Virus record (IMG/VR): IMGVR_UViG_3300048999_000056 | Coordinates: 32,001-96,000 of that record | Source: a virus | DNA: 64,000 nucleotides | Direction: 5' to 3' (one strand) | Position numbers and translations under genes: made by a program | Notes under the pieces: model-generated | Database searches by the model: none | The model's input: the letters and a program-made list of their open reading frames with translations, nothing else | What the model was told of the DNA's origin: nothing | Shown here: in pieces, positions 1 through 18,827 of the stretch | How positions within the stretch are numbered: the stretch's first letter is position 1 | How the letters are laid out: each line of letters starts with the position of its first letter

Positions 1-68
1 CAAGTTTGAGCTGCAGCAGCAACCGTAATTGCGTAGCTCTGTCACGCCAGTTGGATTAGGAGGAAAGG

Positions 69-512: not shown

Positions 513-522
513 CGAGGGATGA

Positions 523-1032: not shown

Positions 1033-1043
1033 CATTCGTGCGG

Positions 1044-1214: not shown

Positions 1215-3493
1215 TGGCGACGACGATCAAAGAGTTCCTTGTTGCGCTCGGCTTCAAAGTCGATCCTGCTCAGCAGAATCGCTTTACCGATGCGTTGAAG
1301 GACTCGCATCAGCGCGTCGAGGCGCTCGGTAAGACGTTGACCGGCATGATCAGCAAGTTTGCCGAAATGGCAACTGCTGCGACCGGCACGGCCATCGGTC
1401 TGGCTGCGGCGATGGCCAAGATCAGCGAGAACATTGCAGGCGCTGCCTACGCCGCTGATCGTATCGGCACAACGACACCTAGATTGAAGTCGTTTGAGGA
1501 AGCCATCAGGCAGGTTGGCGGCACGGCCGAACGTGCACGTGGCATGCTTGAGGGCATGATGGACGTGGAGGCGCACCGTCCAGGCACGATATTCGGCACA
1601 TTCGGTATCAAGCCCGGCACCGATCCGGTCGAGGCGATGCGGCTGCTCTCGCAGCACTTCGCCGAGCTGATACGCACTGGTCGGCAGGCGCAAGCCTTTG
1701 CAGAGGGTGAGATCATTCACCTAACGCGGGCGGACATCCTGCAATTGACCAACCCGCTGATGGACCCTGCGTTTCAGCGGTCCATGGGTCGGCGCAACGC
1801 ATTTGGCATCGGACCAGAAGCCGGCCAGATGGCGGAGGAATCTGACCGGCTGATCAAGCAGCTGCACGATCAATTCAACACATTCCTCGAATACCTGCAG
1901 ACGCGGTGGGGGCCAGCCTTCAATGAGGCTATGCGAGCCGCTACCAAATGGTTCGACGAGAATATCCCGAAAATCAAGCAATGGGTGTCCGACGCTGAAG
2001 GCGTTGTCAAATCCTTCATCGAGACATTGAAGCATTGGTGGGATGCGCTGTCGCCGGCCGGCAAGACAACCGTTGAAACCATCGGCGTCATATTGGTGCT
2101 GCGGGCGCTGAGTGCGCTGCCGATTATCGGTCTACCGATCTTGCTTGCCAGCATCGCGACAGCGATCGTTGACCTCGTTCGCGGCTACAACGAGTGGAAA
2201 GCAACCGGCGTCTCCAGTGGTCTGGTGGACTGGACGGTCTGGGGACCGCAGATCGAGAACCTGAAAAGCGGGTTGACGTTCATCAAAGAGAACGTGATCG
2301 ACCCTCTTACCACGGCCTATAAAGCCTACGACGGCGTGCTCGGCACGGTTGCCGAAAAGCTGGCGGAGCAGAAAACCTACGTTGACGGGCTGATTGCCAG
2401 CTATCAGCAATGGAAGGAGACAGGCATTTCCAAGGGTCCTATAGACTGGGACCTGTGGGGGCCACCGATTACGAAGGCAAACGACTGCATCAAGGCTTTG
2501 GTTGCGATATTCCAGAAATGGCAGGAAGTCGGCATCAAGGGCTTCATTGATTGGAACGTGTGGGGGCCGCCTATCGAGCGGATAACGGAGGCGCTAAAAT
2601 ACTTCAACGAGAATGCGATCATTCCGCTTATCGACAACTTGAAAGCGTTGAAGGATTTGGTGACTTTCTCGACGGGCGTAAACGCAGAGGACCTGATCCC
2701 TGGTTGGCTACGCGGCGTGCTCGGCATTCCTGCTGCTGCTGAAGGCGCGCAGCAACAGCAAGAGGAGCCGTCACTGCTCGGCAAGGCCAAGCAGATGTGG
2801 CGCGATCGGCCGGGATGGCTGGGCGGTAGCGGTGGCGGTGCAACTGATGAACGCAAGGCGGATATACGCGACAGGTTGGTCAAGGAGCTGGGCATCCCCG
2901 TAGAGGCTGCATCTGGTCTGGTCAGTAACCTCAACGCGGAGTCCGGCATTGCCGGTATCAACGAGCGCAATCCTGTTGTGCCCGGCAGTCGTGGCGGCTT
3001 TGGTTGGGCGCAATGGACAGGTCCGCGCCGTGTGGCATTCGAGAACTGGGCACGCGCACATGGGCTCGATCCCGCTTCGGACCAAGCGAACATGGGTTTT
3101 CTCGTTGAGGAATTGCGCAACAAATATCCGCAGGTGCTGGCGCAGCTGAAGTCCGGTCAGATCAGCGCGACTGAGGCAGCGAAGATCGTCAGTGATCAGT
3201 ATATCGTGCCGCCGAAATCTGCGACGGCAGGTCATGTTGCGGCAGCGGCGAGCATTGCCAAGCTGGCAAGTGCTGCGAATGGACCGTCGGCCAGTTTGGC
3301 AGCGCCCGCACTCGTGCCGTCACCGGTGAGCTACAACACGTCTGATCAGTCGCGTGACGTGCAGGTCAATGCGCCGACGAATATCAATATCAACGGCGTC
3401 GCCGATCCGCAGCGTGCGGCCGATCTTACGGACCGGCAACGCGACCGGCAGACTGCGAACCTACTACGGCAGATGAAGGCGGTGATCGCGTAA
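1214..3493 (+). CDS. Tape measure protein with C-terminal phage tail lysozyme domain
   Basis: IKEFLVALGF N-terminus, long helical Ala-rich body, C-terminal SGLVSNLNAESG...GFGWAQWTGPRR lysozyme motif. Confidence 0.85.
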   Translation: MATTIKEFLVALGFKVDPAQQNRFTDALKDSHQRVEALGKTLTGMISKFAEMATAATGTAIGLAAAMAKISENIAGAAYAADRIGTTTPRLKSFEEAIRQVGGTAERARGMLEGMMDVEAHRPGTIFGTFGIKPGTDPVEAMRLLSQHFAELIRTGRQAQAFAEGEIIHLTRADILQLTNPLMDPAFQRSMGRRNAFGIGPEAGQMAEESDRLIKQLHDQFNTFLEYLQTRWGPAFNEAMRAATKWFDENIPKIKQWVSDAEGVVKSFIETLKHWWDALSPAGKTTVETIGVILVLRALSALPIIGLPILLASIATAIVDLVRGYNEWKATGVSSGLVDWTVWGPQIENLKSGLTFIKENVIDPLTTAYKAYDGVLGTVAEKLAEQKTYVDGLIASYQQWKETGISKGPIDWDLWGPPITKANDCIKALVAIFQKWQEVGIKGFIDWNVWGPPIERITEALKYFNENAIIPLIDNLKALKDLVTFSTGVNAEDLIPGWLRGVLGIPAAAEGAQQQQEEPSLLGKAKQMWRDRPGWLGGSGGGATDERKADIRDRLVKELGIPVEAASGLVSNLNAESGIAGINERNPVVPGSRGGFGWAQWTGPRRVAFENWARAHGLDPASDQANMGFLVEELRNKYPQVLAQLKSGQISATEAAKIVSDQYIVPPKSATAGHVAAAASIAKLASAANGPSASLAAPALVPSPVSYNTSDQSRDVQVNAPTNININGVADPQRAADLTDRQRDRQTANLLRQMKAVIA

Positions 3494-4509
3494 TGGCACA
3501 GCAATGGATCAGGAAAATCAGTCTCGTGGTCGAGGGTGCCCAAGGCAGTATCGAGCTGAGCGCGTTGCGCGTCCGCTTCCACGTGTTCGCGCATACCAAC
3601 ATCGCGCCAAGCACGCTTGAGGCGCGCATCTTCAATCTCAATCCTGACAGCGAGCAGAAGCTGCTGACACAGATAGTTGATCCTTTGCCGTCGCTGCAAG
3701 GCTCCAATCCGAACAGCGGCGCCGGCAAGGTGACGTTGCAGGCTGGCTATGAAGAAAACTACGGCACCATCTTCAAAGGTGAGCTGATACAGGTCCGCCG
3801 TGGCCGCGAGGGTCTGGATACCTACATCGATCTGTTTGCCGGCGATGGCGACCGATCGCACAACTGGGCGGTGATCAACACGACATTGGCGGCGGGCTGG
3901 ACACCGCATGACGTGAACGATCAGATACGCAAGGCGATGTCAACTTACGATGTCACAGCTGGCAATCTGCCCGACGCCATCCCGGCCACCGCAGCGCCGC
4001 GCGGCAAGGTGGTTATGGGCATGGCGCGCGACACCCAACGCGATCTGAGCAATCAATTCAACGCGGACGGCTTTGTGCGCAATGGCAATCTCGAATGGCT
4101 GGAGCGCTCGGCCTACCGCCCTGGTGACATTGCCAAGATCAACGCGCAAACCGGCATGATCGGTCTGCCGCAGCAAACCAACTTCGGGCTGACGGTGCGG
4201 ATGCTGCTCAACCCCAGCGTCGGACCGGGCACGCTGCTCCAGCTGCAGAACAAGTCAATTCAACAGCTGCAGGCGTCTGGTCAGGTCGGTGCCGTGACAG
4301 AGAACACCTACCTGCAGAAAAACCTCAACTACGATTTCCTGACGGCGGCGGATGGCAACTATCGCGTGTTCGCGGTTGAGCATATCGGCGACACGCGCGC
4401 CAATGACTGGTACAGCGATGCGATCTGCGTCGCGACATCCTCCGGCATTCCGGGCGGTGCCGCCTTCCTCGTGCCGAAGCAGTATCTTGGATCGGAGGGC
4501 GTGCGGTGA
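3493..4509 (+). CDS. Baseplate hub protein
   Basis: RIFNLN...VTLQAGY...IF.G...TGMIGLPQQT...G.YRV..VEH.GDTR..DWYS motifs. Confidence 0.75.
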   Translation: MAQQWIRKISLVVEGAQGSIELSALRVRFHVFAHTNIAPSTLEARIFNLNPDSEQKLLTQIVDPLPSLQGSNPNSGAGKVTLQAGYEENYGTIFKGELIQVRRGREGLDTYIDLFAGDGDRSHNWAVINTTLAAGWTPHDVNDQIRKAMSTYDVTAGNLPDAIPATAAPRGKVVMGMARDTQRDLSNQFNADGFVRNGNLEWLERSAYRPGDIAKINAQTGMIGLPQQTNFGLTVRMLLNPSVGPGTLLQLQNKSIQQLQASGQVGAVTENTYLQKNLNYDFLTAADGNYRVFAVEHIGDTRANDWYSDAICVATSSGIPGGAAFLVPKQYLGSEGVR

Positions 4510-5138
4510 GCGGAAGCCTTGCTGGCAGCTCGGCGACGATCGCCGCACTCATTGGTGCGGACGTTCTTGAGGAAGTGTTCCTGCAGCCTCACAGGACCAT
4601 CGGGACCATCATTCCCGAGTGCGCCGTGGAGGAACATCATTCGGACCGATTACAGGTCACACAGCATCCGATCGAGATCGGCGCCAATATCTCCGACCAT
4701 GCCTACATGCTGCCTTTCGAGGTCACGTTGCGCTACGGTTGGTCGAACGCGTTGATCGGTGGACAGATACAGAACCTTGGCGATCGGTTCGCGGCGATCG
4801 GCAGCGAGAGTTTTCAACAAGTGATCTCGGGCGGCCAGACCGCCGCGATCTACGAGCATCTGCAGCAGCTGCAAGCGTCGCGCATACCCTTCAGGATCGT
4901 GACGGGCAAGCGCACCTATGCCGACATGCTGATTACGGAAATGGGTGTTACGACCGACGCGCGCACGGAGAACGTGCTGATTGTCGAGCTACACTGTCAA
5001 CAGATTATCAGGGTTTCGACCAGCTCTACGCCCGCAGCGGCGGCGCAGGCGATGCCGGAACAGACAGGTGACGCTATCAACACCGGGAACCAGCAGCTTA
5101 CGCCGGTTCCCGGTGGTGCCGTGACGGGTGTCGCTTAG
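4506..5138 (+). CDS. Baseplate organisation / tube-initiator-like protein
   Basis: EEHHSD.L.VT.HPIE.GA.ISDHAY..P and IVTGKRTY..MLI motifs. Confidence 0.7.
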   Translation: MSGSLAGSSATIAALIGADVLEEVFLQPHRTIGTIIPECAVEEHHSDRLQVTQHPIEIGANISDHAYMLPFEVTLRYGWSNALIGGQIQNLGDRFAAIGSESFQQVISGGQTAAIYEHLQQLQASRIPFRIVTGKRTYADMLITEMGVTTDARTENVLIVELHCQQIIRVSTSSTPAAAAQAMPEQTGDAINTGNQQLTPVPGGAVTGVA

Positions 5139-5785
5139 TGGACGAAGTTGCAGGCTAGGTGCGCTGTGCCGTAGTAGTCGGAACCCATGCCGCGATACGA
5201 GCTGAGACAGCTATCCCAGAGCATCTGCTGGCTCTGTGCCGTGGCGCCCGCCGCGCCGCCAGGATGGCGTTGACAGGCGCCCTGATCTCCATAGTAGCAC
5301 GTGATGGCGTCGCGGTTCTGTTGGGCTTGTGCGGCGATTGCGTCCTTCTGCGCCTGAGGCAGACAGCCGGACGGATTGTAGCTGTTGCAGACGTGGTTCT
5401 GATTCGCCTTGTGATACTCGGTTGCCAGCTCGCGATTGTTGATCGTCGCCTTGTCGCTTTCCCATTGCTGGCAGGTCGCCGAGCCTTGGGCGTAGGGGCA
5501 TGACTCCGGAGCAGCCCAGCCGGAGCCGGCATACAGCTTGCGGACTTCAGCGTAGGACATCGTGCCGGTGATCTTCGGCGGGCACGATCCGGCTGGTGGA
5601 CCGCCCGGTTGTTGATGGTAAGGCACTGGCCGCCCGGTCTGTCCGTCAACAACGTTCGTGCAGCCTTTGTCGGCGAAACCGCCCGTGTGGTGCCACTCGT
5701 TCCATGCGGAATACGGGTGACCGAAGCTGCCGTCAGCATTGCAGCCGGCGAGGGTGATGCAGGCGGTGAGGATCAAGGCGCGCAT
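5135..5785 (-). CDS. Cys-rich lipoprotein, antisense moron in the baseplate operon
   Basis: Signal peptide with lipobox LAGC; many Cys; opposite strand to neighbours. Confidence 0.6.
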   Translation of the reverse strand: MRALILTACITLAGCNADGSFGHPYSAWNEWHHTGGFADKGCTNVVDGQTGRPVPYHQQPGGPPAGSCPPKITGTMSYAEVRKLYAGSGWAAPESCPYAQGSATCQQWESDKATINNRELATEYHKANQNHVCNSYNPSGCLPQAQKDAIAAQAQQNRDAITCYYGDQGACQRHPGGAAGATAQSQQMLWDSCLSSYRGMGSDYYGTAHLACNFVH

Positions 5786-5814
5786 AGCGTGGTTCCTTCA
5801 ATACGGTTGAACTC

Positions 5815-6132
5815 ATGGCAACGACGATCTCGGAAATCCCGCTACGTGCTTCATCGCAGACGTTCACGATCTCGCTTGCATCTGTAATATACAAAATGCG
5901 GGTGCAGTGGCGCGACAAGGCACAGGAATGGATCGTTGATCTGAGCGATCAGGACGACAATTTGTTGATCGCTGGCGTGCCGCTGCTGCCCGGCGCCGAC
6001 ATTCTGGGGCAGTATCCAGAGCTGGGCGTCGGCGGCGAGCTATGGGTGGCGTCGGACGGTGCGCCGGACGAACCGCCAACCTTTGCCGGGCTCGGCTCGA
6101 CCCATCACCTGTACTTCGTGGCGAGAAGCTGA
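5815..6132 (+). CDS. Baseplate plug-like protein (DUF6983-like)
   Basis: EIPL...QTF.I.L...W..DL.D....L..G.PL..G.D.L.QY motif. Confidence 0.65.
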   Translation: MATTISEIPLRASSQTFTISLASVIYKMRVQWRDKAQEWIVDLSDQDDNLLIAGVPLLPGADILGQYPELGVGGELWVASDGAPDEPPTFAGLGSTHHLYFVARS

Positions 6133-6882
6133 ATGGACTATCGCGAGCGCTTCCACGACCCGCAGGAAGCCTTACGGGCCGCCCTGGGTAGTCATCAGGC
6201 TTCCGTCTGGACAGCCCTGCCTGGCATCGTCCAGAGCGTGGATTTCGCCAAGATCACGTGCACCGTCCAGCCCGCGATACAGGCCCAGCAGGTCACGCCG
6301 GACGGCGAACGGAACAACGTCAACATGCCGCTTCTGGTTGACGTGCCGATCCACTTCCCCGGTGGGGGCGGTTACACGGCGACGTTTCCGTTGAAGGAAG
6401 GCGACGAATGCGTGGTGGTGTTCTCGTCGCGCTGCATCGACAATTGGTGGCAAAGCGGCGGCGTGCAACCGCCGTTTGAGCAACGCATGCACGATTTGTC
6501 CGATGCCTTTGCCGTTCCGAGGATTTGGAGCCAACAGACCAAGATCAGCAATATCTCCGATAAGACGGCGCAGCTGCGTAGTGACGACGGCACGCGATAT
6601 GTCGAACTGGACACGCCGAACAAGAAGGTTCGCGCGGTCACGGATACCGTTGTGATCGAGCTGGACAGCAGCAGCGGCAAGGTGACGGTGACGGCTCCGA
6701 CTGAGGTTCATGTTGAATGCCCCCTGGTCACGCTGAGCGGCGACCTGCACGTCTCGGGTGCCGTGATCGGTGGCTACGGCGGGGGCGATCAGGTGGGCTT
6801 GCAGACGCATACGCATACGCAGCCAAACGACACGCACGGCGATGGCGAGCTACCAACCAGAGCACCGACGGCAGGCACGTGA
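6133..6882 (+). CDS. Baseplate central spike (Gp138/gpV-like)
   Basis: TALPGIV...VQPAI...LVDVP..FP.GGG...GDEC.V.F..RCID.WW..GG...R.HDLSDAF; C-terminal HTH (His-x-His) metal-binding tip. Confidence 0.85.
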   Translation: MDYRERFHDPQEALRAALGSHQASVWTALPGIVQSVDFAKITCTVQPAIQAQQVTPDGERNNVNMPLLVDVPIHFPGGGGYTATFPLKEGDECVVVFSSRCIDNWWQSGGVQPPFEQRMHDLSDAFAVPRIWSQQTKISNISDKTAQLRSDDGTRYVELDTPNKKVRAVTDTVVIELDSSSGKVTVTAPTEVHVECPLVTLSGDLHVSGAVIGGYGGGDQVGLQTHTHTQPNDTHGDGELPTRAPTAGT

Positions 6883-7019
6883 TGGCAGACGATAACGATG
6901 ACTGGAGAAATCCGTTGCTCGGCACAACCGGCGTCTTGGCTGTCGTCATGGTGATCGGTCTGGCAGCTCTCGGGATCGGCGGATTGACGACGCTTATTCG
7001 TTGGGCGGTGACGCCATGA
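6882..7019 (+). CDS. Small membrane protein
   Basis: 45 aa with one hydrophobic helix; coupled start/stop overlaps on both sides. Confidence 0.45.
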   Translation: MADDNDDWRNPLLGTTGVLAVVMVIGLAALGIGGLTTLIRWAVTP

Positions 7020-7465
7020 GATATCGCAAGTTGACAGCGTCCGGCGATATGCAGTTCGGCCAACAGCAAGCCGACTTCTGGATCAACACGCCTGAAGCGG
7101 TGGCGCAGGCTGTCCAGACGCGGTTGCAGCTGCAGCTTGGAGCGTGGTTTCTCGATACGGATGACGGCATGGACTGGCAAGGGTCCGTGCTCGGCAACAG
7201 AACCTCGCCGATTCGCGACGCCACGATCCGCGCTCGTGTGTTGACGACGTTTGGCGTCAATTCAATCGACGGTTATGCATCAGGCTTCAATCCGAACAAC
7301 CGAGCGTTCGCGGCGCAGTTCTCGTTGGATACCATCTACGGCAAACTCGATCTGTTGAAGACAACATTCTTGACGCCGACCGGCCCACGTCCGCCGATAC
7401 CACCATTTAACGTTGGCGCTAACGTGTTGAATGACACGCAGGTCAACGTCACCTGGAGCGGCTAA
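7016..7465 (+). CDS. Baseplate wedge (gp25/gp46-like) with C-terminal half-FN3 extension
   Basis: MRYRKL...GD..FG...AVAQAV.TRL.L..G.WFLD...G; tail PPIPPFNVGANVLNDTQVNVTW resembles FN3 strands A-B. Confidence 0.75.
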   Translation: MRYRKLTASGDMQFGQQQADFWINTPEAVAQAVQTRLQLQLGAWFLDTDDGMDWQGSVLGNRTSPIRDATIRARVLTTFGVNSIDGYASGFNPNNRAFAAQFSLDTIYGKLDLLKTTFLTPTGPRPPIPPFNVGANVLNDTQVNVTWSG

Positions 7466-9667
7466 ATGTCAGGCACAACTACCTATCAAGTCCGCTACCG
7501 CGTCAAAGGTTCAACGACGTGGATCAACTATGGCCAGCCGATAACGGACTTGACCGAGGTCATATCCGGGCTGAAACCCAACACGACGTATGAAATGGAG
7601 GTTGTCGCAACCAATCCGCAAGGTGCGGTTGCATCGAACATTATCACGTTTACCACTGGCAGTTCGGTGCCGCCATCGGTGCCCGGCCTGCCGATCGCCA
7701 GCGGGATCAGTACGACATCGCTTGTGCTCAACTGGCCGGCATCGTCCAGCGGTGCCCAACCGATTTTGTACCAGCCGCAGTTCCGGGTGCACAATACTGG
7801 TAGCTTCGTCAATGTCGGTCTGCAAAGCCTGTCGCAATCAGTGACGGTCACTGGTTTGTCCGCGAGCACAAGCTACGATTTTCGGGTGATTGCCACCAAC
7901 AGCAACGGATCGGCGACTTCTGCAACCCTGACGGTCAGCACGGCGGCGATCGGCACTGCGCCCAGCTCGCCAACCAGTCTACGGGCAACAAACGTCACGG
8001 CGAGCGGCCTGACATTGTCCTGGGTAGGTTCAACAGGCACGCCACCGATCACCTACCAGCCACGCTACCGTCTTGCAGGCACGACCAACTTCGCCACGTT
8101 CGGCCCGGCGATCAGCGGCACGACCGTCAACATTACTGGATTGGCGGCGAGCACCAATTACGAATTTCGGGTGGATGCAGTCAACTCTGTGTCCGCAACA
8201 CCTTCAGCGATCTTGCCGGTCACGACGATTGCTTCGACCATTGCACCTTCGGCGCCAAGCGGGCTGACTGCGAGTAATCAGTCGCAGACTGGCATAACGG
8301 TGTCGTGGGCTGCCTCGACCGGCACGCCAGCGCCGACGTATCAGCTACAGTATCGTGTCGGCGCGACCGGCGCATTTGCCAACTACGGCGCGCCGATCAG
8401 CGGCACGTCTGTCAACGTGACAGGACTGGTAGCGAGCACGACATACAACTTCCAGGTTGTGGCGTCCAACAGCGCCGGTTCTGCGACCTCGACGGTCCTG
8501 TCGGCTGCGACGACCGGCGCACCTGTAGCGCCATCCGCGCCGCTCAATCCAACGGTTGGCACGGTGACAAGCAGCTCGATCGCGGTGTCATGGACGCATC
8601 CGGCACAGGGCACCGATCCGCTGCAATATCAGTTGCAATGGCGCCAGCATCCGGCGGCAGGTTCTGTCGCCGGCTTGTTCAATGAAGACTTCAGCGCGCT
8701 CGATATCAGCGAAACAGGCGGCGCCGTTCCGTCTGCGACGATTACACCGGCTTCCGGCGGCTCGATCACCGATCCATCCGGCAACGTGTGGACGATTAGC
8801 AGCGGTGCTGTATTCGAGAATGGATCGGCTGCAGGTTTTACGGCCAATGTTGCAGAAGTGGCATTGGTCAACGGCGTTATCTGGCACGAGAACAACACTA
8901 ACCAGTGGTATTCGTGGTCGCCACCTTCAACGTGGAACCCCGGCACCGATCCGACCGGCGGAACCGGAACCGGCGCCTGGACGAATCACTACGCGTTCGG
9001 TGGTTCCGAGTATACGCTATCGGCGAACAACGAGGCTCAGTACTACGCCAGTTCTACGCGCACGCCGGGCTTCAATCCGTTCTCAGTCTCCGGCGGCGTG
9101 CTGACGATCACTGCCGACAGTGTGGCGCATACCGTTGCCAACCCGCTTGGGCTGCCATACAATTCCGGTGCGATCATATCAGCGCAGGAGAGCAATGGCT
9201 CCCCTGCGCCCGGCCTGTTCTCGCACATGTACGGCTACTTCGAGGCGCGATGCCAGCTGCCGAAAGGGCGCGGGCTGTGGCCGGCATTCTGGTTGCTGCC
9301 GTTGACTGGTGCCGGCGAGATCGATATCTTCGAACAGCTCGGCAATGATACAACAACGATCTACTGTTCGCTGCATGCGACGGTGGGCGGTGTCGGCAAC
9401 ACGGTGTCGCTGGGCTTTGATGCGTCGGCGGCAATGCATGTTTACGGCTGCGATTGGCAAGCTGACTTCATAACTTGGTATGTCGATAACGTCCAGGTAG
9501 CGCAGGCGCCGACGCCAAGCGACATGATCGGCAAGCCCTACTATATTCTCTTCAACTTGGCTGTCGGTGCTGCTGGTTCCTGGCCCGGCCCGCCTGACGG
9601 CACGACAGTCTTCCCAGCCCGCATGCAGATCGATTATGTCCATGTCTTCGACAAGAGGCCATTCTGA
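7466..9667 (+). CDS. FN3-repeat virion protein with GH16 (ExsH-like) glycanase
   Basis: Tandem FN3 repeats (W...Y..GL...T.Y.F.V.A.N); GH16 motifs YGYFEAR, GLWPAFWLL, EIDIFE, H.YG.DW, MQIDYV. Confidence 0.85.
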   Translation: MSGTTTYQVRYRVKGSTTWINYGQPITDLTEVISGLKPNTTYEMEVVATNPQGAVASNIITFTTGSSVPPSVPGLPIASGISTTSLVLNWPASSSGAQPILYQPQFRVHNTGSFVNVGLQSLSQSVTVTGLSASTSYDFRVIATNSNGSATSATLTVSTAAIGTAPSSPTSLRATNVTASGLTLSWVGSTGTPPITYQPRYRLAGTTNFATFGPAISGTTVNITGLAASTNYEFRVDAVNSVSATPSAILPVTTIASTIAPSAPSGLTASNQSQTGITVSWAASTGTPAPTYQLQYRVGATGAFANYGAPISGTSVNVTGLVASTTYNFQVVASNSAGSATSTVLSAATTGAPVAPSAPLNPTVGTVTSSSIAVSWTHPAQGTDPLQYQLQWRQHPAAGSVAGLFNEDFSALDISETGGAVPSATITPASGGSITDPSGNVWTISSGAVFENGSAAGFTANVAEVALVNGVIWHENNTNQWYSWSPPSTWNPGTDPTGGTGTGAWTNHYAFGGSEYTLSANNEAQYYASSTRTPGFNPFSVSGGVLTITADSVAHTVANPLGLPYNSGAIISAQESNGSPAPGLFSHMYGYFEARCQLPKGRGLWPAFWLLPLTGAGEIDIFEQLGNDTTTIYCSLHATVGGVGNTVSLGFDASAAMHVYGCDWQADFITWYVDNVQVAQAPTPSDMIGKPYYILFNLAVGAAGSWPGPPDGTTVFPARMQIDYVHVFDKRPF

Positions 9668-12600
9668 TGCCAAATCTGACGATCAACCTCGGGTCGCTGA
9701 CAGGTAAGACTGTCCCGGCTGCTCTGTATGGTTTCTCGACTGGCGCGCTCGCCGACAACGGCTTCGCCAATGCTGCAGCTACTGCCACGAAGAATGCGTT
9801 GACAACAATCAAGCCGACGCTTGTTCGCGTCAATGCAAACCAGCAAATTCCGGAGAAATACGGAACCGGCAACACCGGCTACACCAACAATTGGTGGAAC
9901 AACCGGGCTGCCTTCATGGACCCAAACCATACTTTTGTCATGTCGGCCGGTCCTTCGTCTGACACCGGCTTGCCTTACTCGGCCAGTCAGGAAGCGACGT
10001 ATGCTTCGAATTTCGCAACTGCAATGCGGAATGCTGGTCACGAGATAACAACTTGGGAGATTGGCAACGAGTCGCTCAACATCTTGCCTGATGTTGCGAG
10101 CTATCTGAATTATTACCTGCCGATCGCTCGCGCTCTGCATACTGTTAATGCCAACTATAAAGTTGGCGGTCCTGCCACGACATGGTGGGGCGCCTATGAT
10201 CCGGCGCAGTTTGCCAATGGTGTTGCGGCCGGTGACTGCGACTTCTACGAGTTCCACGCTTACAACTTCCAGGGCGTAACCGATCATGCGTCCATCTACA
10301 ATGGTGCCAAGAACTTCGGCGATGCAGACTCCATTCGGACCGCTCTGCGAAATACGAAGCTGGCGAATGTGCCGATCTTCCTGTCGGAGTGGAACCTCGA
10401 CGGTGACTTCAATACCAATCCTGGCATTCAGATCACCTATGTAGGCGCCATTGCGGACGCATTGCTGTCAACTCGTATGTGGCAAGGCGATCCGAACATT
10501 ATGGGCGCCGCTTACTGGGATGCTATCAGCGATCCAAAGTTCGGCGCGATTGAAACCAACGGACAGATCAACCCGCCTGGATACTACCTAGGCTACGCCG
10601 GTCAGCACATGCCCGGTGCAGAGGTCACGGTCTCCGGTGTGTCTGGCAATCTGCAAGTGCTGGCGACGAAGAACGGCAGTAACGTTGCAATTCAGCTCGT
10701 CAATTACGATACAGCGTCTGCGTCAGCCAACAACATCACCTTGACTGGTGGACAGCCGTCCGGTGCGATTACGCGTTGGGAGATCGGCAAATCTAATCAG
10801 TCAACGCCGAATGTCTCGACGCAAGCCAGCCTGTCCAGCGTCAATGTGCCGTCTGAGCAAATCGTCATTCTGACCTTCAGCACGGCAGCAGCGCAGCGCT
10901 CGTTGACGGTCAACGCGATAACAGGTGCGCAAGTCGGTTCGACATTTACCGTGTCCGGCACACTGACAAACTTCACGTCGGCCCCGACGCTGCTCTATTC
11001 TGACGATGGCGGCGGCACTCAAGCGCTGCCGGCCGGCGCGAATGTGACTGCAACATCATACAGCTTCACGCATCCGGCGCCGACAATTGCCGGCAACCAT
11101 ACGATCGTCGTGACTGATGGCACCAACTCGGCATCCGCGACATACAGCGTCGTTGACATCACGTGGCAGTCGCGACCGTTGACAGGCTCACTGTCCGACA
11201 CCGTGACAGGACTGGCGCCCTCGACCTCCTACGACTTCCGTGTATCGGCGCAGAACTCGCTCGGCAGCGGTCCGTTCTCAACCGTCGTCACGCGCTCGAC
11301 CGGCACTGTCGCGCCGACGTTGCCGGGTGCGCCTGTAAGCGTATCGTCTTCTGCTGTCTCGTCGTCTTCGGTGACGGTGACATGGGGGGCGCCGACGACA
11401 GGCAGCGCGCCGTTCACCTATCGCGTGCAGTCCTCCCCGGCAGGCTTGGGCACCTGGACCAATCGAGGGACAGGGGTTTCGGGCACAAGCCTGCCAGTGA
11501 CCGGTCTGGCAGCCGCTACGAGCTATGATTTCCGGGTATTCGCCACGAACAGCGTCGGCGAGGGTCCGGCGTCTTCGACTTACAACGTCTCGACCACGAC
11601 AGCGGCAGCAGCAGTTACGTGGGACCCAGCCAACATCGGCGGCGGCGCGACTTTGTCCAACAGCAACCTGACGGTGACAGCGAACGGTTCCACGACACCG
11701 GGCACAGCCTTTCAGGGTGTGCGTAGCACAGTCTCTCAATCGGCCGGCAAACTCGCCTTTGAAGTGACGACAAATGCCTTGACGCAGGACATGGAGATTG
11801 CTCTCGTCAATGGCAATCATGCCCAAACGACTGATGCTGGGGAGGATCAGCTCAACGGCATCGCGTTTTATCCCAGCGGCGGCGGTGGTAGTCAGGCGCC
11901 GATGTCGGTCTACCAAAATAGCGTTCAAGTGCTGGTCCCTAGCGGCTCGCCGATCTCGGATAGCCCCGGTTCGATTGTGACATTCTGCGTTGATCTGACA
12001 GCCCGGTTGTTCTGGGTTACGAGTAACGCGATGCGTAGCGTCTACGGCGCGTCAGCCTGGAATGATAGCGCCAGTGCCAATCCGGCAACCGGCGTTGGTG
12101 GCATACCGATCAACATCACGGGTGCATTGTTTATCTGCTTCTTTTCCTCAGAGGGCGGTGCAGTCGTCACACTCAATGCCGGCTCGTCCACATTCTCCAC
12201 TTTTGTTCCGTCCAGCTTCGCGGCCTGGGGCGGAACAGGAGCAATCACCGCTCCTGGTGCTGTGACAAGCCTGAGTGGCAGCCCGAGTTCTACAAGCGTG
12301 CAGCTGACCTGGAGCGCACCAACGATCGGCACAACGCCGTTTACCTACCACATGCAGATGTCGCCGACCGGCACCAACACGTGGTCTGATCAAGGCACGT
12401 CTTCGTCGGTATCCGGCACCGTTGCAGGTCTGACGCCTGGGACTGGTTATGACTTCCGCGTCTATGCTGCGAATGCAGCCGGCAATGGCGGGTTCTCCAA
12501 CACGATCACGGTCAGCACGACTTCCGGCGTCTCGGGCACGACGTTCGACGAAGAGTTTGGCACGCTGAGCCTACTCAATACGCGCAACACGGCGGCGGGC

Positions 12601-14526
12601 GGCACGTGGCAGCCGGCAGTCTGGTATACTGATGCAAACGGCAGTCCTGATGGCTACGGGATCGATGACGGCTGGTTTGTCAATCCATTCAACCCGGCGA
12701 CGCCGATCAACGACATATATACGATCGTCAGTGGCTCTTTGAACCTCGCGATCGAAGCCAAGCCGGCAAGCGTCGCTCCCTCGGCTGTCGGCAACAAGCC
12801 TTACATGACTGGGCAGCTGCAGACACAGCCGACATTTCGGCAAGCAGGCGGCTACTTTGAAGCGCGGCTTGCCTGTCCGAAGTTGGATGGAACCATGTTC
12901 GCGTGGTGGTTCTATTCCGACAACGGCAACCAGATGAACCTGGAGATTCCGACCGTCCAGGGCGGCGGTCAGTTCGCCAAATACAGTCTGTGGAACCAGG
13001 GCTCGCAGGCGATCGTCAACGAGTTCTACAGCTACAACATGGCGAGCCCGATCGACTGCACGCAATTCCACACTTACGGCATCGATTGGAACCCGCCAAC
13101 CGGACTGATGACGTTCTACATCGATGGCGCACAGGTTATGCAGGCGCCGATCCCGGCCGGCTTCACCGATCCGATGTACATGCTCTTGTCGAGCTACACA
13201 GGTTCGGCCGGCTGGTATGGTTCGATCACCAATCCTGCCGGGTTGCCGATCAAGATGCAGGTTGACTACGTGCGCGCATTTCCGATCGGGCATGGTCCTG
13301 GTAGCGGTGTTGCCGCGCAACCTGTCACGACGTTCCTGAGTTCGCTTGGCGTCAACGTCCATATCGATCAGGGTTTCAGCGCGAACTCATATATCACACC
13401 GCTGCAGTTCACCGGGATCAAGAACATCCGCACCGGCTACAGCAACATTGGCGGTGCCGTGACGGCGCACAACTCAGCCGGCGTAATGGTCAACGTGTTC
13501 GGTTCGTCTGATCTCACGAGTCACCTTGCAGCAGCGCGGACTCTTGCCACCAACGGCGCGCTGCTATCAATCGAAGGACCGAACGAGCCCAACAATTTCC
13601 CCTTCAGCTACCTGGGCAATCAGGGCGGCGGCTCGGGCACATGGGTCCCGGTAGCGCAGTATCAACGCGATCTTTATGCAGGCGTCAAAGCCGATAGCCA
13701 GCTGCAGAACTTCCCCGTGTTCCACGTTTCTGAGGGTGCCGGCGAGACGGACAACGTTGGCATGCAGTTCCTGACGATACCGAACGGCGCCGGTATCGCC
13801 ATGCCTGACGGCACGAAGTATGCCGACTATGCCAATCCGCACAACTACGTCTCAGGCAATCTGGGCGGTCAGTATGTCAACAACACGGCATGGAACGCTG
13901 CCGATCCGACATTGAACGGCTCCTGGGACGGGCTCTATGTGGAGTATGGGCGGACGTGGCGCGGCGGCTTTGCCGGCTACAGCAATGCGGACTTGCAGAC
14001 GTTGCCACGCGTCACGTCAGAAACCGGCTGGGACTCGACCTCGCTTGGCGAGACGATACAGGGCAAGGTTCTGCTCAACACCTACCTCGCGCAGTTCAAG
14101 CGCGGGTGGCGCTACACGTTCATCTATGAAATGTTCGACCAGGAAGCGTCATCGGGCAACCAGGGGCTGTATCGCAGTGACAAGGTGACGGCGAAGCTGG
14201 CCGCTACCTACATTCACAACATGACAACGATATTGGCTGGCGGGTCGAACATCGCCACGACGCCGCTTGCCTATTCGATCGCCAACCAGCCGGCGACTGT
14301 GCACGATCTGTTGCTGCAGAAAACCGGCAACGTCTATGATCTGATCGTCTGGGGCGAACAGGTATCCGGTTCAAACAACGTGGTTGTCAACCTTGCGGTG
14401 GCACGTTCCTCCATCAAAGTCTTCGATCCGACTGTCGGCACGGCTGCTGTGCAAACGTTGACAAATGCCAGCTCCGTGACGCTTTCGGTGAGCGATCATC
14501 CCTTCATCATAGAGATCACGCTCTGA
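9667..14526 (+). CDS. Large multidomain appendage: clan GH-A hydrolase, Ig-like, FN3, SPRY-like, degenerate GH16, second GH-A hydrolase
   Basis: WEIGNE / FLSEWN and IEGPNEPNN / TSETGW catalytic pairs; FN3 repeats; GGYFEAR...FHTYGIDW...MQVDYVR. Confidence 0.75.
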   Translation: MPNLTINLGSLTGKTVPAALYGFSTGALADNGFANAAATATKNALTTIKPTLVRVNANQQIPEKYGTGNTGYTNNWWNNRAAFMDPNHTFVMSAGPSSDTGLPYSASQEATYASNFATAMRNAGHEITTWEIGNESLNILPDVASYLNYYLPIARALHTVNANYKVGGPATTWWGAYDPAQFANGVAAGDCDFYEFHAYNFQGVTDHASIYNGAKNFGDADSIRTALRNTKLANVPIFLSEWNLDGDFNTNPGIQITYVGAIADALLSTRMWQGDPNIMGAAYWDAISDPKFGAIETNGQINPPGYYLGYAGQHMPGAEVTVSGVSGNLQVLATKNGSNVAIQLVNYDTASASANNITLTGGQPSGAITRWEIGKSNQSTPNVSTQASLSSVNVPSEQIVILTFSTAAAQRSLTVNAITGAQVGSTFTVSGTLTNFTSAPTLLYSDDGGGTQALPAGANVTATSYSFTHPAPTIAGNHTIVVTDGTNSASATYSVVDITWQSRPLTGSLSDTVTGLAPSTSYDFRVSAQNSLGSGPFSTVVTRSTGTVAPTLPGAPVSVSSSAVSSSSVTVTWGAPTTGSAPFTYRVQSSPAGLGTWTNRGTGVSGTSLPVTGLAAATSYDFRVFATNSVGEGPASSTYNVSTTTAAAAVTWDPANIGGGATLSNSNLTVTANGSTTPGTAFQGVRSTVSQSAGKLAFEVTTNALTQDMEIALVNGNHAQTTDAGEDQLNGIAFYPSGGGGSQAPMSVYQNSVQVLVPSGSPISDSPGSIVTFCVDLTARLFWVTSNAMRSVYGASAWNDSASANPATGVGGIPINITGALFICFFSSEGGAVVTLNAGSSTFSTFVPSSFAAWGGTGAITAPGAVTSLSGSPSSTSVQLTWSAPTIGTTPFTYHMQMSPTGTNTWSDQGTSSSVSGTVAGLTPGTGYDFRVYAANAAGNGGFSNTITVSTTSGVSGTTFDEEFGTLSLLNTRNTAAGGTWQPAVWYTDANGSPDGYGIDDGWFVNPFNPATPINDIYTIVSGSLNLAIEAKPASVAPSAVGNKPYMTGQLQTQPTFRQAGGYFEARLACPKLDGTMFAWWFYSDNGNQMNLEIPTVQGGGQFAKYSLWNQGSQAIVNEFYSYNMASPIDCTQFHTYGIDWNPPTGLMTFYIDGAQVMQAPIPAGFTDPMYMLLSSYTGSAGWYGSITNPAGLPIKMQVDYVRAFPIGHGPGSGVAAQPVTTFLSSLGVNVHIDQGFSANSYITPLQFTGIKNIRTGYSNIGGAVTAHNSAGVMVNVFGSSDLTSHLAAARTLATNGALLSIEGPNEPNNFPFSYLGNQGGGSGTWVPVAQYQRDLYAGVKADSQLQNFPVFHVSEGAGETDNVGMQFLTIPNGAGIAMPDGTKYADYANPHNYVSGNLGGQYVNNTAWNAADPTLNGSWDGLYVEYGRTWRGGFAGYSNADLQTLPRVTSETGWDSTSLGETIQGKVLLNTYLAQFKRGWRYTFIYEMFDQEASSGNQGLYRSDKVTAKLAATYIHNMTTILAGGSNIATTPLAYSIANQPATVHDLLLQKTGNVYDLIVWGEQVSGSNNVVVNLAVARSSIKVFDPTVGTAAVQTLTNASSVTLSVSDHPFIIEITL

Positions 14527-14527
14527 T

Positions 14528-15736
14528 ATGTCCGGCACGATAACAACAACGCCCATCTGCACCGTAGATCGGCTTGGCATTCATGCGCCAAGCTATCAGG
14601 ACGTGCTGTCCTATTTGCAGCAGCAGTACCAAGCGATCTACGGGGCCGATGTCTATCTCGGGAATGACAGCCAGGATGGCCAGTTTCTGGCCGTGCTCGC
14701 GCTGGCTATCCATGACACGAACAGCATGGCAGTCGCGGTCTACGGGGCGTTCTCGCCTGCCACGGCGCAAGGTGCCGGTCTGTCATCGGTGGTCAAGATC
14801 AACGGCATCCGCCGGCTGATCGCGACCAACTCCACCGTTGACGTTGTGCTGGTCGGACAGAACGGCACGACGATCCTCAACGGCATTGTGCGCGATGCGA
14901 ACGGCAACAATTGGCTGCTGCCGCCGTCTGTGACGATCCCCCCTGCCGGACAGGTGACGGCGACGGCGCAGTCAGCCAACCCCGGCGCTGTCTCGCTCGC
15001 GGCGCGCGGCATCGATACGTCGAACGATGCCGGCACGATCCTGACGCCGACGCGTGGCTGGCAGAGTGCCAGCAATCCGTTGCCGGCGGTGCAGGGTGAT
15101 CCGCTGGAATCGGACGCAGCACTGCGCCAGCGTCAGACTGTCTCAACGGCGCTGCCGTCGCAGACTGTGCTCGATGGCATTGTCGGCGATGTTGCCAGCG
15201 TGCCCGGCGTGCTGCGCTATCAGGTCTACGAGAACGATACCGGTGTAACCGATATCAACGGCATACCACCCCATTCGATTGCGTTTGTGGTGGACGGTGG
15301 CGACGCCAGTCAGATTGCCCAAGCCATTGCGTTGAAGAAGACACCGGGCAGCCCGACCTACGGCACCACGACTGAAATCGTCATCGATGATCAAGGCACC
15401 GGGCATTCGATCAACTTCTTCCGGCCGACACCGGTTCCGATCACGGTCGCGATCACGATCGCACCGCTGGCAGGCTTCACGACAGCGACAGAGGCGGTCA
15501 TTGTCCGCGCCGTGGCTGACTACATATCGGCGCAACCGATTGGCATAGACGTGCTGCTGACCAAGCTGTATTCGCCGGCCAATCTGACTCCGCCTGTCGG
15601 CAATACGTTCAACATTGTGTCGCTGGCAATTTCGCGATCCGGCACGCCGACGGCGCAGGACGTGCCTATTGCCTTCAACGAGGCGGCAATTTGCACCACT
15701 GACAACGTAACACTGACAGCGCTGGTCAACCCGTAA
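14528..15736 (+). CDS. Baseplate J-like protein
   Basis: IYG.D.YL..DSQDGQ, A.G.GL...VKINGI.R, ESDA.LR.RQ, VYENDT...D.NGIPPHSI. Confidence 0.9.
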   Translation: MSGTITTTPICTVDRLGIHAPSYQDVLSYLQQQYQAIYGADVYLGNDSQDGQFLAVLALAIHDTNSMAVAVYGAFSPATAQGAGLSSVVKINGIRRLIATNSTVDVVLVGQNGTTILNGIVRDANGNNWLLPPSVTIPPAGQVTATAQSANPGAVSLAARGIDTSNDAGTILTPTRGWQSASNPLPAVQGDPLESDAALRQRQTVSTALPSQTVLDGIVGDVASVPGVLRYQVYENDTGVTDINGIPPHSIAFVVDGGDASQIAQAIALKKTPGSPTYGTTTEIVIDDQGTGHSINFFRPTPVPITVAITIAPLAGFTTATEAVIVRAVADYISAQPIGIDVLLTKLYSPANLTPPVGNTFNIVSLAISRSGTPTAQDVPIAFNEAAICTTDNVTLTALVNP

Positions 15737-17610
15737 TGGCATGGGGCGTCCACAACAGCAACCTGTTGCTATCGAACAGCAACAGGACACTTACGCAGAA
15801 CGGTCAGCAGTTCTCGGTGCTGTCGGCTGCAGGCGCCCGCTTTGTCACGTCCGGCAAGTTCTACTGGGAACTCGTCCTCAACGCTGATTTGTCGTCGGGC
15901 GGCACTCTTGAATCCGGTAACAGCTTCATCAATATCGGTGTCGCCAACCCTTCGTTCGATGCCACGCTCACAAGCCCCGACATTGGCGGCACGACCAACG
16001 CGTATCAGTGGTACACATTCGGCGGTGGCGGCTCTGGCAACTACAACGGCACCTATCAGTTTCCGCTGCCGGCATTTGCGCAGGGCAACACTGCGCAAGT
16101 CGCGTTGGATGCCACCAATCATACGATGTGGCTCAACGTCAATAACGCTGGTTGGATCGGCAACAACGGCAACGCCGGTGATCCGGCTGCCGGCACCAAC
16201 GGTATTCCGCTAGCATCTGGTTTGTATACGGGCGGACTCGCGCCCGCAATCAGCTTCCAACCTTCTACGAACAATCAGGTAACTGGCAACTTCGCACCGG
16301 CCAACTGGACCTACACGGCGCCGTCCGGTTTCGGCTCGATTGACACGCAGACGCTCAACGCGACAGCGGCATTTGCCGGTGCCGGCTCCCTTACGGTCAA
16401 CGCTACTGTCCCTGCTCAGTCGCTCAAGCAGGCGAGCGCGGCACTGGCCGGCATCGGTTCGGTCACGGCAAACGCACGGCTGCGAGCGCGCGGTATTGCG
16501 CTGTTCCAGGGCGTAGGAACCGTCTCGGCAGCGACGCGCGGACCAGTGCCTGCCTCGGCTAGTCCGGCAGGCGTAGGCAGCCTGAGCGTGGTGGAACGGG
16601 TGACGATCCACGGCTCGGCTAGTCTCTCAGGGGCAGGCTCTGTTTCGGTGTTCTTCACACCGATTGCGGCGCCCCCTCCGGTGATCGTGCCACCGCCTGC
16701 CGTGCAGGTTCCCGTTGACGATTATCTGCGGCTGATACCGAGCTACAACGCCATTCAGCCGAAGTTCATGGCGACGTTGCGATCAGTTGTTCAACCATTC
16801 GCCGATCAGCAGGAGTTCCTGTCGTCACTGCCGCAGGTATTCGACCTCGATACGGCGATTGGCGTGCAGCTCGATCAGGTCGGCTTGTGGATTGGCCGTG
16901 ACCGCACCATTGAGACGCCGATCAGCGGTGTTTACTTTTCGTGGGATACGCCTGGACTTGGCTGGGAGCAAGGCACGTGGCAGGGCACCTTCGATCCGAG
17001 CGAGGGTCTGACGGTGCTGGACGATGAAACCTATCGGCAGTTGCTTTACGCGAAGATCGGTTCCAACAACTGGGACAGCTCGCCGCAGAGTATTGTTGAT
17101 ATTCTGTCAACGCTGCTTGAGGGTCAAGGCGCCGTTGCGATAACCGTCACCGACAACAACGATATGACGATATCGGTCAACGTAAGCGGTGCGATCAACA
17201 GCGTTGTGTTTCGCTCGTTGATCCTAAACGGTGAGGTTCCGATCAAGCCTGCGGGCGTCGGTATCACCTACAACCTGCCAGCGCCCGGCGCGACAGTCTC
17301 CTATCCCGGCACGGCCTTCATTGGCGGCTCTGGCGGACTTGTTGCCAACGCTACGGTGCAGCGGCCCGGAACGCAGTTTGCGTCGGCCAATGTAGTCGTG
17401 AGCGGTGTTGTTGTTGCCCGCGCTACCATTCGAGATACGCAGGCGCGCGCAACATTTTCCGGTGTCGGCAACGTCGTGGTGGCGCCGACTGCCAGATTGC
17501 AGGCGCGGACAACGCTTGCCGGTGCCGGCGGACTGCTCGGCGTGGCGACCCTGCGAGCGCGAGCGCAAGTCACAATTCAAGGGGCTGGTGGGCGGACATT
17601 CAACGTATAA
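15736..17610 (+). CDS. Baseplate wedge (DUF2612-like) with N-terminal SPRY-like domain and AGxGS repeats
   Basis: FDLDTAIGVQLDQVGLWIG...LDDETYR.LL.AKI..N.WD; N-terminal SGKFYWE domain. Confidence 0.8.
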   Translation: MAWGVHNSNLLLSNSNRTLTQNGQQFSVLSAAGARFVTSGKFYWELVLNADLSSGGTLESGNSFINIGVANPSFDATLTSPDIGGTTNAYQWYTFGGGGSGNYNGTYQFPLPAFAQGNTAQVALDATNHTMWLNVNNAGWIGNNGNAGDPAAGTNGIPLASGLYTGGLAPAISFQPSTNNQVTGNFAPANWTYTAPSGFGSIDTQTLNATAAFAGAGSLTVNATVPAQSLKQASAALAGIGSVTANARLRARGIALFQGVGTVSAATRGPVPASASPAGVGSLSVVERVTIHGSASLSGAGSVSVFFTPIAAPPPVIVPPPAVQVPVDDYLRLIPSYNAIQPKFMATLRSVVQPFADQQEFLSSLPQVFDLDTAIGVQLDQVGLWIGRDRTIETPISGVYFSWDTPGLGWEQGTWQGTFDPSEGLTVLDDETYRQLLYAKIGSNNWDSSPQSIVDILSTLLEGQGAVAITVTDNNDMTISVNVSGAINSVVFRSLILNGEVPIKPAGVGITYNLPAPGATVSYPGTAFIGGSGGLVANATVQRPGTQFASANVVVSGVVVARATIRDTQARATFSGVGNVVVAPTARLQARTTLAGAGGLLGVATLRARAQVTIQGAGGRTFNV

Positions 17611-17628
17611 CTGCGGACGTATGATCTT

Positions 17629-18816
17629 ATGGCACAGAACGACTTTCTTCTCTGGGCAACTGGCGCGAACGCCAACGTCTTATCGCAGGCGGAGTATGCC
17701 GGCCTTGGCAATCGGTCGTCAGGCGTCGTCGCTGGTGTAGCGTCCGGCAAGCTCTACAATAAACAAAACCGTCAGGCGTCGATAATCTCGTCGATGATCG
17801 CGCAGTTCATCAGCGATCGGCTCAACGCCGACGTGATAGATGACGGCACCATCGCGACGATCGAAGCCAACTTTACCGCTGCCGTCCGCAGCGTCTTCAG
17901 CATTCCGAACACAGGCGTTGTGCCGGGCACCTACGGTCCGACCATGACACTGTCAGTGCAGGCAGACGGTCGGATCACGGCATTGTCGAGCACGGGATTG
18001 ACATCTTCGGGCGTGCCGCCCGGAACCTACGTCGGCACGACGATAACGGTTGCGGCGGACGGCCGCATAACGGCGATCTCTGGCGTGCCGTACGGTCAGA
18101 TCGGTGGCGACAACAACTGGCAAGGTGGCAACACCTTTAATCATCTGGACAACGGTGGCAACGGCGGTCAATTCCGAGCTGTGCAGGGTTCCTACGGTTC
18201 GATGTGGCGTAACGATGGTAGCTCGACGTATCTGCTATCGACCGCTGCCGGGCAGCAGACCGGCATATGGAGTGCCTACCGTCCGTTCTACTGGAATATG
18301 GCGACAGGCGCCGTCACGATCGACGGAACTGCGTCAGGTGTCAACTTCGGTGGCGCGATAAGCACTGGCCAGGGGATCACGGCTGGATCAGGGAACATCA
18401 CAGCCAATTCGGGGCGCCTACGCGCCGGCTTGGGTGCGTTCGGGTCCGGTGATGCCTTTGCTGGCGTCATTCTCTCGGACGTGTTTCTCGGCGGCAATCT
18501 GGGCAACGATGATTGGTCCTACATGCGGCTGCCGAGCGGCTACATCATCCAGACTTATCGCGGCGCGACTACCAACGGTGGCGAGTTCATCACGTTCCCG
18601 GTGGCGTTCCCCAATGCCTGCCTGCAAGTGTTGGTGCATGAGGGAAATCCGCAAGGATGGATTCCGCCGGCAATTTCCTTCGTCAGCCCAACGATCTTCG
18701 GCACGCAGCAGTTGAGCGCAAATGCCTTTGCTCTCTACTGCGTGCGATACAACTCGAATGCTACTTGGTTCCTTGCTGGTGGCATAGCATTTCGGTACAT
18801 CGCCATCGGCTACTAA
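17629..18816 (+). CDS. Tail fibre protein
   Basis: N-terminal NDFL......ANV.SQAEY...G.A.....NK..RQ; RNDG...YLL.T; C-terminal LPSG.IIQ...FP.AFPNAC...Y.AIGY. Confidence 0.85.
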   Translation: MAQNDFLLWATGANANVLSQAEYAGLGNRSSGVVAGVASGKLYNKQNRQASIISSMIAQFISDRLNADVIDDGTIATIEANFTAAVRSVFSIPNTGVVPGTYGPTMTLSVQADGRITALSSTGLTSSGVPPGTYVGTTITVAADGRITAISGVPYGQIGGDNNWQGGNTFNHLDNGGNGGQFRAVQGSYGSMWRNDGSSTYLLSTAAGQQTGIWSAYRPFYWNMATGAVTIDGTASGVNFGGAISTGQGITAGSGNITANSGRLRAGLGAFGSGDAFAGVILSDVFLGGNLGNDDWSYMRLPSGYIIQTYRGATTNGGEFITFPVAFPNACLQVLVHEGNPQGWIPPAISFVSPTIFGTQQLSANAFALYCVRYNSNATWFLAGGIAFRYIAIGY

Positions 18817-18827
18817 GGAGGGAGAAC

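Follow-up and report, generated by a model that had tools for sequence, protein, structure and literature searches.

One FN3 domain encoded in two halves by adjacent genes in the baseplate region of a soil phage, with glycoside hydrolase domains between the halves

The stretch of DNA analyzed here (the window; 64,000 nucleotides [nt], positions 32,001 to 96,000 of IMG/VR record IMGVR_UViG_3300048999_000056) is part of a 112,818-base virus record of a soil phage that CheckV rates as complete. Its bases 1-20,000 hold a contractile-tail baseplate block with a tape measure protein, a hub, a gp138-like spike and a gp25-like wedge protein (W), and, beyond the two genes that are the subject of this study, a gp6/J-like wedge protein (J) and fiber genes. 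These two genes, P1 and P2, each carry one half of an FN3 domain, P1 the N-half (strands A-B-C) and P2 the C-half (strands C'-E-F-G), and the two halves add up to exactly one domain. A second FN3 is divided in another register, with strands A-B at the end of W and strands C-G at the start of P1. For convenience we call the W/P1 split (AB/C-G) joint 1 and the P1/P2 split (ABC/C'-G) joint 2. The features concerned, in window coordinates, are as follows (aa, amino acids; pLDDT, predicted local distance difference test score).

7016..7465, plus strand: gp25-like baseplate wedge protein W (PF10934 in homologs; phrog_120)
nt 7391-7462, plus strand: C-terminal extension of W, FN3 strands A-B, ending 2 aa past the strand-B Trp
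7463..7468, plus strand: gene boundary of joint 1, in-frame TAA then ATG
7466..9667, plus strand: P1, 733 aa; FN3 strands C-G, three intact FN3, FN3 N-half, GH16
8525..8662, plus strand: N-half, strands A-B-C, P1 aa 354-399, with Trp376 in strand B; the profile-matching part is aa 354-396, nt 8525-8653
8675..9664, plus strand: GH16 of P1 (payload 1), with a ~70-aa beta domain inserted after the first GH16 strand
9653..9669, plus strand: P1/P2 boundary, AAGAGG Shine-Dalgarno sequence at 9653-9658 and TGATG stop-start overlap
9667..10881, plus strand: GH39-like (clan GH-A) hydrolase with its C-terminal beta-sandwich (payload 2), P2 aa 1-405
10900..11151, plus strand: complete Ig-like domain, P2 aa 412-495, pLDDT 86-95
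11155..11301, plus strand: C-half, strands C'-E-F-G, P2 aa 497-545, straight after the Ig-like domain
11317..11598, plus strand: intact FN3 directly after the C-half, P2 aa 551-644; with the C-half, a "one-and-a-half FN3"
11615..14526, plus strand: remainder of P2; ConA/SPRY-like domain, FN3 (aa 861-952), second GH16, C-terminal domain
14528..15736, plus strand: gp6/J-like baseplate wedge protein J

In P1, FN3 strands C-G (aa 1-65) and three intact FN3 domains (aa 69-350) are followed by a segment, aa 354-396, that covers only positions 1-43 of an FN3 profile made from all five FN3 domains that are intact in P1 and P2, and about 8 residues further on, at ..GLFNEDF.., the GH16 module begins. 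This bears out the original prediction, made from the letters of the window, that the last FN3 of P1 stops after strand C and runs into GH16. Of the coordinates given there for the N-half (8528-8653), the end holds and the start is off by one codon, the quoted 41-aa peptide corresponding to nt 8531-8653. A profile of the N-half matches solved FN3 domains in the Protein Data Bank (PDB) over their first ~45 residues. P2, an open reading frame (ORF) of 1,619 aa (9667-14526, plus strand), opens with a GH39-like part that is 43% identical to the N terminus of P0226 (L and P numbers are our labels for other loci and proteins; P0225, P0226, P0297, P0308, P0319, P0342 and P0372 are matches known as protein sequences alone). 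An orphan second FN3 half had been placed in P2 after a complete Ig-like domain, and it does lie there, at aa 497-545 right after the Ig-like domain at aa 412-495; the end given for it, 11301, is correct for strand G, while the quoted 40-aa peptide ends at 11280. The Ig-like unit is also found free-standing, as a tandem repeat, in P0223, P0225 and P0228, and since other proteins repeat it alone, up to ten times, it is an autonomous domain.

When the N-half of P1 and the C-half of P2 are joined in silico, they form one gap-free FN3 that covers profile positions 1-92 with 78.6 bits and a conditional E value of 1.4e-25, in agreement with the earlier claim that the halves align as a single domain. 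The cut falls at profile position 42/43, between strands C and C'/D, and across the joined halves the strand-C Tyr and the strand-F Tyr have a spacing of 35 residues, the same as in intact domains. Core residues of the fold are present in both pieces (Trp376 and the Tyr of ..LQYQLQWR in P1, the strand-F Tyr of ..STSYDFRV in P2), and coverage of the FN3 family (PF00041) is complete from strand A to strand G, but is contributed by two chains. As had been proposed, GH16, the gene boundary, the GH-A hydrolase (GH39-like) and the Ig-like domain all sit between strands C and C' of this one FN3. Because the isolated halves match the profile with E values of 1e-11 to 4e-15 and the pair recurs in five other loci, the split FN3 is not a product of chance.

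These five diverged loci (L097, L179/L178, L205, L206 and L212; L178 and L179 differ at 21 of 4,452 nt) carry the N-half and the C-half, like the window, on adjacent genes, and the N-half is upstream in 6/6 loci that have the C-half. In all six lineages the N-half covers the profile from position 1 or 2 to position 42 or 43, the C-half sets in at positions 43-46, and concatenation of the two in silico gives one full domain each time (72-102 bits). In L097, whose W is 57% identical to that of the window, the upstream protein P1' is collinear with P1 aa 1-403 (55% identity) and the alignment ends exactly where the N-half ends, after which P1' continues with a full FN3, a GH39-like domain and a stop; the downstream protein P2' opens with a 19-aa linker, after which come an Ig domain and the C-half, and it aligns collinearly with P2 aa 412-927 (48% identity). 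The GH39-like domains of the window and L097 share only 25% identity, and the gene boundary comes before the domain in the window but after it in L097. In L179 and L205 the N-half is the C-terminal end of the upstream protein (last residues ..YRPH and ..YRPTP, respectively), and the downstream protein of L179/L178 and L205 has GH16 or other domains and several Ig domains before it reaches the C-half. In L206 and L212 the upstream protein has the N-half, a Thr-Pro linker, a payload (GH16 and GH26, respectively) and a stop, and the downstream protein opens with the C-half at residue 2-3, no Ig preceding it. As the six loci differ in this manner, the chain break is movable while the halves are kept: it falls right after the N-half in L179 and L205, inside the payload in the window and L097, and right before the C-half in L206 and L212.

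The halves are also conserved to the same degree as complete domains. Identity to L097 is 65% for the N-half (47-62% for the intact FN3 domains of P1) and 54% for the C-half (49-52% for the neighboring Ig, FN3 and ConA-like domains), and compared with L179 the values are 57% against 42% for the N-half and 46% against 48-53% for the C-half, the second figure in each case being that of intact comparison domains. The halves contain no indels across the lineages compared, and the strand-B Trp (Phe in L206), the strand-C Tyr and the strand-F Tyr are kept in all six. With a conservation like that of intact FN3, no indels and their core residues kept, the halves are not expected to be inert stumps. 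Precisely this would be the case if they were relics of module shuffling, in which an FN3 coding sequence took up DNA for GH16, the GH39-like domain and the Ig domain together with a gene boundary, and the two stumps were left behind as inert linkers. Such a history would suit the ready recombination of FN3 arrays, the partial FN3 profile matches that large bacterial FN3 proteins also give and the fact that P1 and P2 are themselves a 7-kb insertion (window 7466-14526) between two wedge genes, as judged from 12 more distant relatives in which J directly follows W. However, it would have to account for stumps that stay free of indels, and as conserved as intact domains, across lineages only 40-65% identical, that persist while payload and chain break change, and that in L179 and L205 make up, with 41 aa, the entire C terminus of a protein; we therefore regard inert relics as an unlikely explanation.

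The order Ig, C-half, FN3 was found in at least seven further protein clusters, which come from protein searches, five of them from a 50% representative library in which they stand as cluster representatives. One P2-like protein, P0319 (1,227 aa), has an N-half (profile 2-53) at aa 1173-1224, three residues before its C terminus, which could be a third-level joint or a contig-end truncation.

No completion of either half within its own chain was found, either in AlphaFold2 (AF2) monomer models of P1 aa 340-733 and P2 aa 310-650 or at the gene ends of relatives. The P1 model has a confident GH16 with its inserted beta domain, and the N-half and linker have a pLDDT of ~25. In the P2 model the Ig domain (pLDDT 86-95) and the following FN3 (>90) are confidently folded, and the C-half has a pLDDT of 74-84 with only short F/G-like strands, its C'/E part being coil; when the P2 fragment model was used in a fold search, all matches were generic FN3/Ig domains of the titin and receptor types. 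Four loci have a half placed right at the end or right at the start of a protein, where it cannot be completed in cis. It is conceivable that the halves are functional but find other partners, the C-half pairing with its own Ig or the next FN3 and the N-half with another P1 or a different protein in a strand-swapped oligomer. The pLDDT of the C-half in the monomer model and the second incomplete FN3 at the N terminus of P1 speak for this possibility, but in L206 and L212 the C-half forms the first residues of the protein with no Ig ahead of it, exactly seven strands result only from the combinations W plus P1 and P1 plus P2 while other pairings duplicate or lack strand C, and the N-half and C-half always occur together on adjacent genes. 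We consider pairing with such other partners improbable.

P1 and P2 are separately translated genes, each with its own Shine-Dalgarno sequence and start. The TGA of P1 (9665-9667) overlaps the ATG of P2 (9667-9669), with AAGAGG 8 nt upstream. The original prediction had called for a check of 9665-9669 for a -1 frameshift product, which would turn P1 and P2 into one polypeptide whose FN3 merely hosts a nested insertion in cis; a sequencing error that split one ORF would have the same consequence. That nested insertions in cis exist in this family (P2' of L097, P0297, P0308, P0342 and P0372) lends this idea some substance. The P2 frame is indeed the -1 frame relative to P1, but it is open for only 69 nt upstream of the P2 ATG, no slippery heptamer of the form X XXY YYZ was found at the P1/P2 overlap, let alone one conserved in the overlap among relatives as expected of a programmed -1 frameshift, and each gene has translation signals of its own. 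Boundaries of this type in relatives range from an overlap to a gap of ~24 nt, the non-overlapping ones having spacers of 15-24 nt with the two genes in different frames. Another assembly contains a variant of 99% identity (P0004, 733 aa; P0224, 1,619 aa) that has the same ORF ends as P1 and P2 and differs within the N-half by a conservative Val-to-Ile change, and given these identical ends in an independent variant, misassembly or sequencing error is unlikely. A single polypeptide is thus the least probable of the alternatives, and neither of the observations named at the outset as fatal to the idea of two complementing halves, completion in cis and a frameshift or sequencing error, has been made.

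At joint 1, W ends with ..VNVTWSG, followed by TAA and ATG, and P1 begins with MSGTTTYQVRYR. A GGAG Shine-Dalgarno sequence (7455-7458), made of Trp and Ser codons of W, lies 7 nt before the P1 ATG. The ORF of W opens at TTG 7001, but every homolog begins with MRYRKL, which makes ATG 7016 the likely start (149 aa) rather than the TTG. Most W proteins are 117 aa long and have no A-B extension; about 10 W homologs (53-91% identical) have one, ending 0-8 residues past the Trp, and in five loci the next ORF opens with strand C. The junctions take five geometries (in-frame TAAATG, an ATGA overlap, and spacers of 1, 4 and 12 nt), and because the geometry varies between loci, readthrough is ruled out as a general mechanism of joint 1. 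Stop-codon reassignment or readthrough was also considered for the window itself and rejected: no suppressor tRNA was found in the window, and TAA, TAG and TGA are all used as ordinary stops in nearby genes. L098 and L020 share joint 1, have no C-half, and carry an intact FN3 where P1 has its N-half. P1 has no other candidate attachment domain.

Taken as a whole, these data make it probable, in our judgment, that P1 and P2 are joined non-covalently through one FN3 domain that the two chains rebuild together. P1 (aa 354-396) would supply strands A-B-C and P2 (aa 497-545) strands C'-E-F-G of a single beta-sandwich, and, at the earlier joint, strands A-B of the wedge protein and strands C-G of P1 would plug the FN3 rod into W. 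The result would be a continuous rod running from the wedge through joint 1, three FN3 domains, joint 2, an FN3, the ConA-like domain and another FN3 to enzymes, while the cut ends of the C-C' loop would carry the GH16 of P1 and the GH39-like and Ig domains of P2 as side branches. The side-branch enzymes are presumably polysaccharide depolymerases; the appendage would probably be part of the virion, and the stoichiometry of gp25-like wedge proteins would allow up to six copies per baseplate. The chain from wedge to P1 to P2 by split-domain complementation that was originally proposed is thereby favored on comparative grounds, both joints being conserved, their registers exact and the break between chains mobile, whereas the physical pairing of the halves is what we infer from sequence. 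Several points weigh against this interpretation. The pLDDT of the N-half is low, which may partly reflect homologs in the alignment that lack the N-half segment, and the middling score of the C-half may mean that it is partly structured alone or leans on a neighbor. Both halves have been seen in context in six loci only, and all of these are metagenomic contigs.

A comparison of window bases 6900-11400 with the phage collection by blastn gave no match, nothing was found when viral contigs were scanned with the N terminus of P2 and with the GH16 of P1 as single proteins, and a scan of bacterial and archaeal genomes yielded ordinary FN3 arrays only, with neither a split pair nor a prophage copy. 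The beta domain inserted into the GH16 of P1 (window 8700-9000, P1 aa ~420-500, ~70 aa, with ..GSITDPSGNVWTIS..W..) is present in four copies in P0007 and in three in an L098 protein, and it may be a carbohydrate binder.

As to how a domain could come to be divided in this way, we propose that domains were inserted, nested, into an FN3 loop and that gene fission then took place at different points in each lineage. Such a history is plausible because the family has cis insertions within FN3 loops. In P2' of L097 (L097:13352-16348) one FN3 (aa 473-530 and 828-873) is split in its C'-E loop by a ~300-aa esterase-like nested domain (a weak match to PF00756) within a single chain, and the orthologous FN3 of the window's P2 (aa 861-952) is intact; similar inserts in cis occur in FN3 domains of P0297, P0308, P0342 and P0372. 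In L205 a gene for an HNH_3 and AP2 homing endonuclease (L205:7931-8485, minus strand) occupies the exact site of another FN3 split, after strand F; its neighbors are L205:6702-7934 on one side and, on the other, the ORF whose end is at L205:9331. The upstream baseplate protein there ends with ..YDFEVVTTNL and a stop, and strand G is found, as MGTSTSPILQVTT, in the next ORF; L179 has only a 9-nt in-frame spacer at this position, and strand G is missing. The exact location of this gene in an FN3 split suggests homing endonucleases as one route to fission. A comparable case is reportedly the nrdA gene of Aeromonas phage Aeh1, said to be split by mobE into two ORFs, the products of which come together again as a functional protein. 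The likeness to such genes in pieces bears on the possible origin only, and it is limited by the fact that joints 1 and 2 of the window are without an endonuclease gene. In L179 and L205 (L179:1904-3139 and L205:6702-7934) the FN3 rod is anchored to a protein downstream of the J-like gene, not to the gp25-like protein, and the appendage module with its split FN3 has apparently changed its anchor on the baseplate.

Completion of one subunit's fold by another is familiar from chaperone-usher pili (Pap/Fim), where the strands of the next subunit complete an incomplete Ig-like sandwich and a fiber of subunits results. There, a single G strand is donated by an N-terminal extension and a chaperone and an usher are needed, while at joint 2 three and four strands would come together, no chaperone is evident, and the neighbors are baseplate genes, so that joint 2 does not belong with these systems. 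A closer natural parallel is human HCF-1, whose N and C subunits, in the account of Park et al. (2012) given in PMC6582346, are held together by a half FN3 and a one-and-a-half FN3 after cleavage in a long intervening region; for the composite module, Fn3nc (SAS1; PDB 4GO6), the same source mentions that W384A in the N-half disrupts it. The phage proteins resemble HCF-1 in having half an FN3 on one chain (P1 aa 354-396) and, on the second, another half with a complete FN3 behind it (P2 aa 497-545 and 551-644), a long variable region with the chain break between the halves, and a Trp in the N-half. In contrast, HCF-1 is a eukaryotic nuclear protein from one gene that is cut post-translationally by a protease (OGT or Taspase 1), whereas the phage halves come from two genes with their own starts and no recoding signal, belong to a baseplate setting and bear a glycoside hydrolase payload. 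The profile of the phage one-and-a-half FN3 matches 4go6_B (E value of 1.4e-8) across the boundary of half and full domain, while 4go6_A is not among the best 60 PDB matches of the N-half profile; the match to 4go6_B is generic FN3 similarity and not evidence of common descent.

Among phages, the baseplate tripod of Tuc2009 (PDB 5E7T) has a composite, titin-like domain in which a C-terminal beta-hairpin of BppU completes the sandwich of BppA (PMC4742702). This is the nearest structural precedent for joint 1, with its A-B hairpin of the wedge protein, although the phage joint described here is read from sequence. Strands A-B at the C terminus of W would fit a terminal hairpin of the Tuc2009 type. 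Unlike Tuc2009, where two strands come from a protein terminus, joint 2 has three and four strands from internal segments, with whole enzyme domains and a gene boundary in the loop, and Tuc2009 is, unlike the window phage, a siphophage of a Gram-positive host (Lactococcus). A cut in the C-D loop of FN3 is also known from protein engineering, where it gave the most efficient complementing pair, mixed peptides rebuilding a working monobody (Dutta et al. 2005, as reported in PMC11666773), with the split at residues 45/46 of ~94 according to the same report. The engineered 10Fn3 is cut at the same place, the loop after strand C, but it is man-made and has no loop payload. The suggestion that this mode of attachment had not been described must be qualified in view of HCF-1 and Tuc2009, which are natural precedents; our literature search turned up no phage FN3 split that carries a loop payload, and the new elements here are the cut at C/C', whose loop holds entire enzymes and a gene boundary that can shift, the serial arrangement of two joints that differ in register, and the placement on a wedge protein of a myophage.

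More tentatively, and with more doubt than confidence, we speculate that split FN3 domains may be a register-coded set of connectors, in which the cuts AB/C-G, ABC/C'-G and A-F/G would act as orthogonal plug-and-socket joints by which depolymerases from separate genes could be chained and branched on the baseplate and exchanged by recombination. Loop payloads would then lie on either side of a movable gene boundary, and insertion of homing endonucleases could be one source of the cuts.

If the halves do pair, phages would have a simple means, needing no chaperone, of fixing large enzyme proteins to the baseplate and arranging them in branches, and this would explain how proteins without a recognizable adaptor domain, such as P1, which consists of FN3 repeats and GH16 only, become parts of the virion. 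The annotation of such genes would change as well, since an FN3 that looks truncated at the end of a gene would have to be taken as a docking signal from which the partner can be told. Natural, mutually specific pairs of split FN3 domains would serve protein engineering as orthogonal complementation tags, and the parallel with HCF-1 would be an instance of convergence, one fold being used with the same cut in both.

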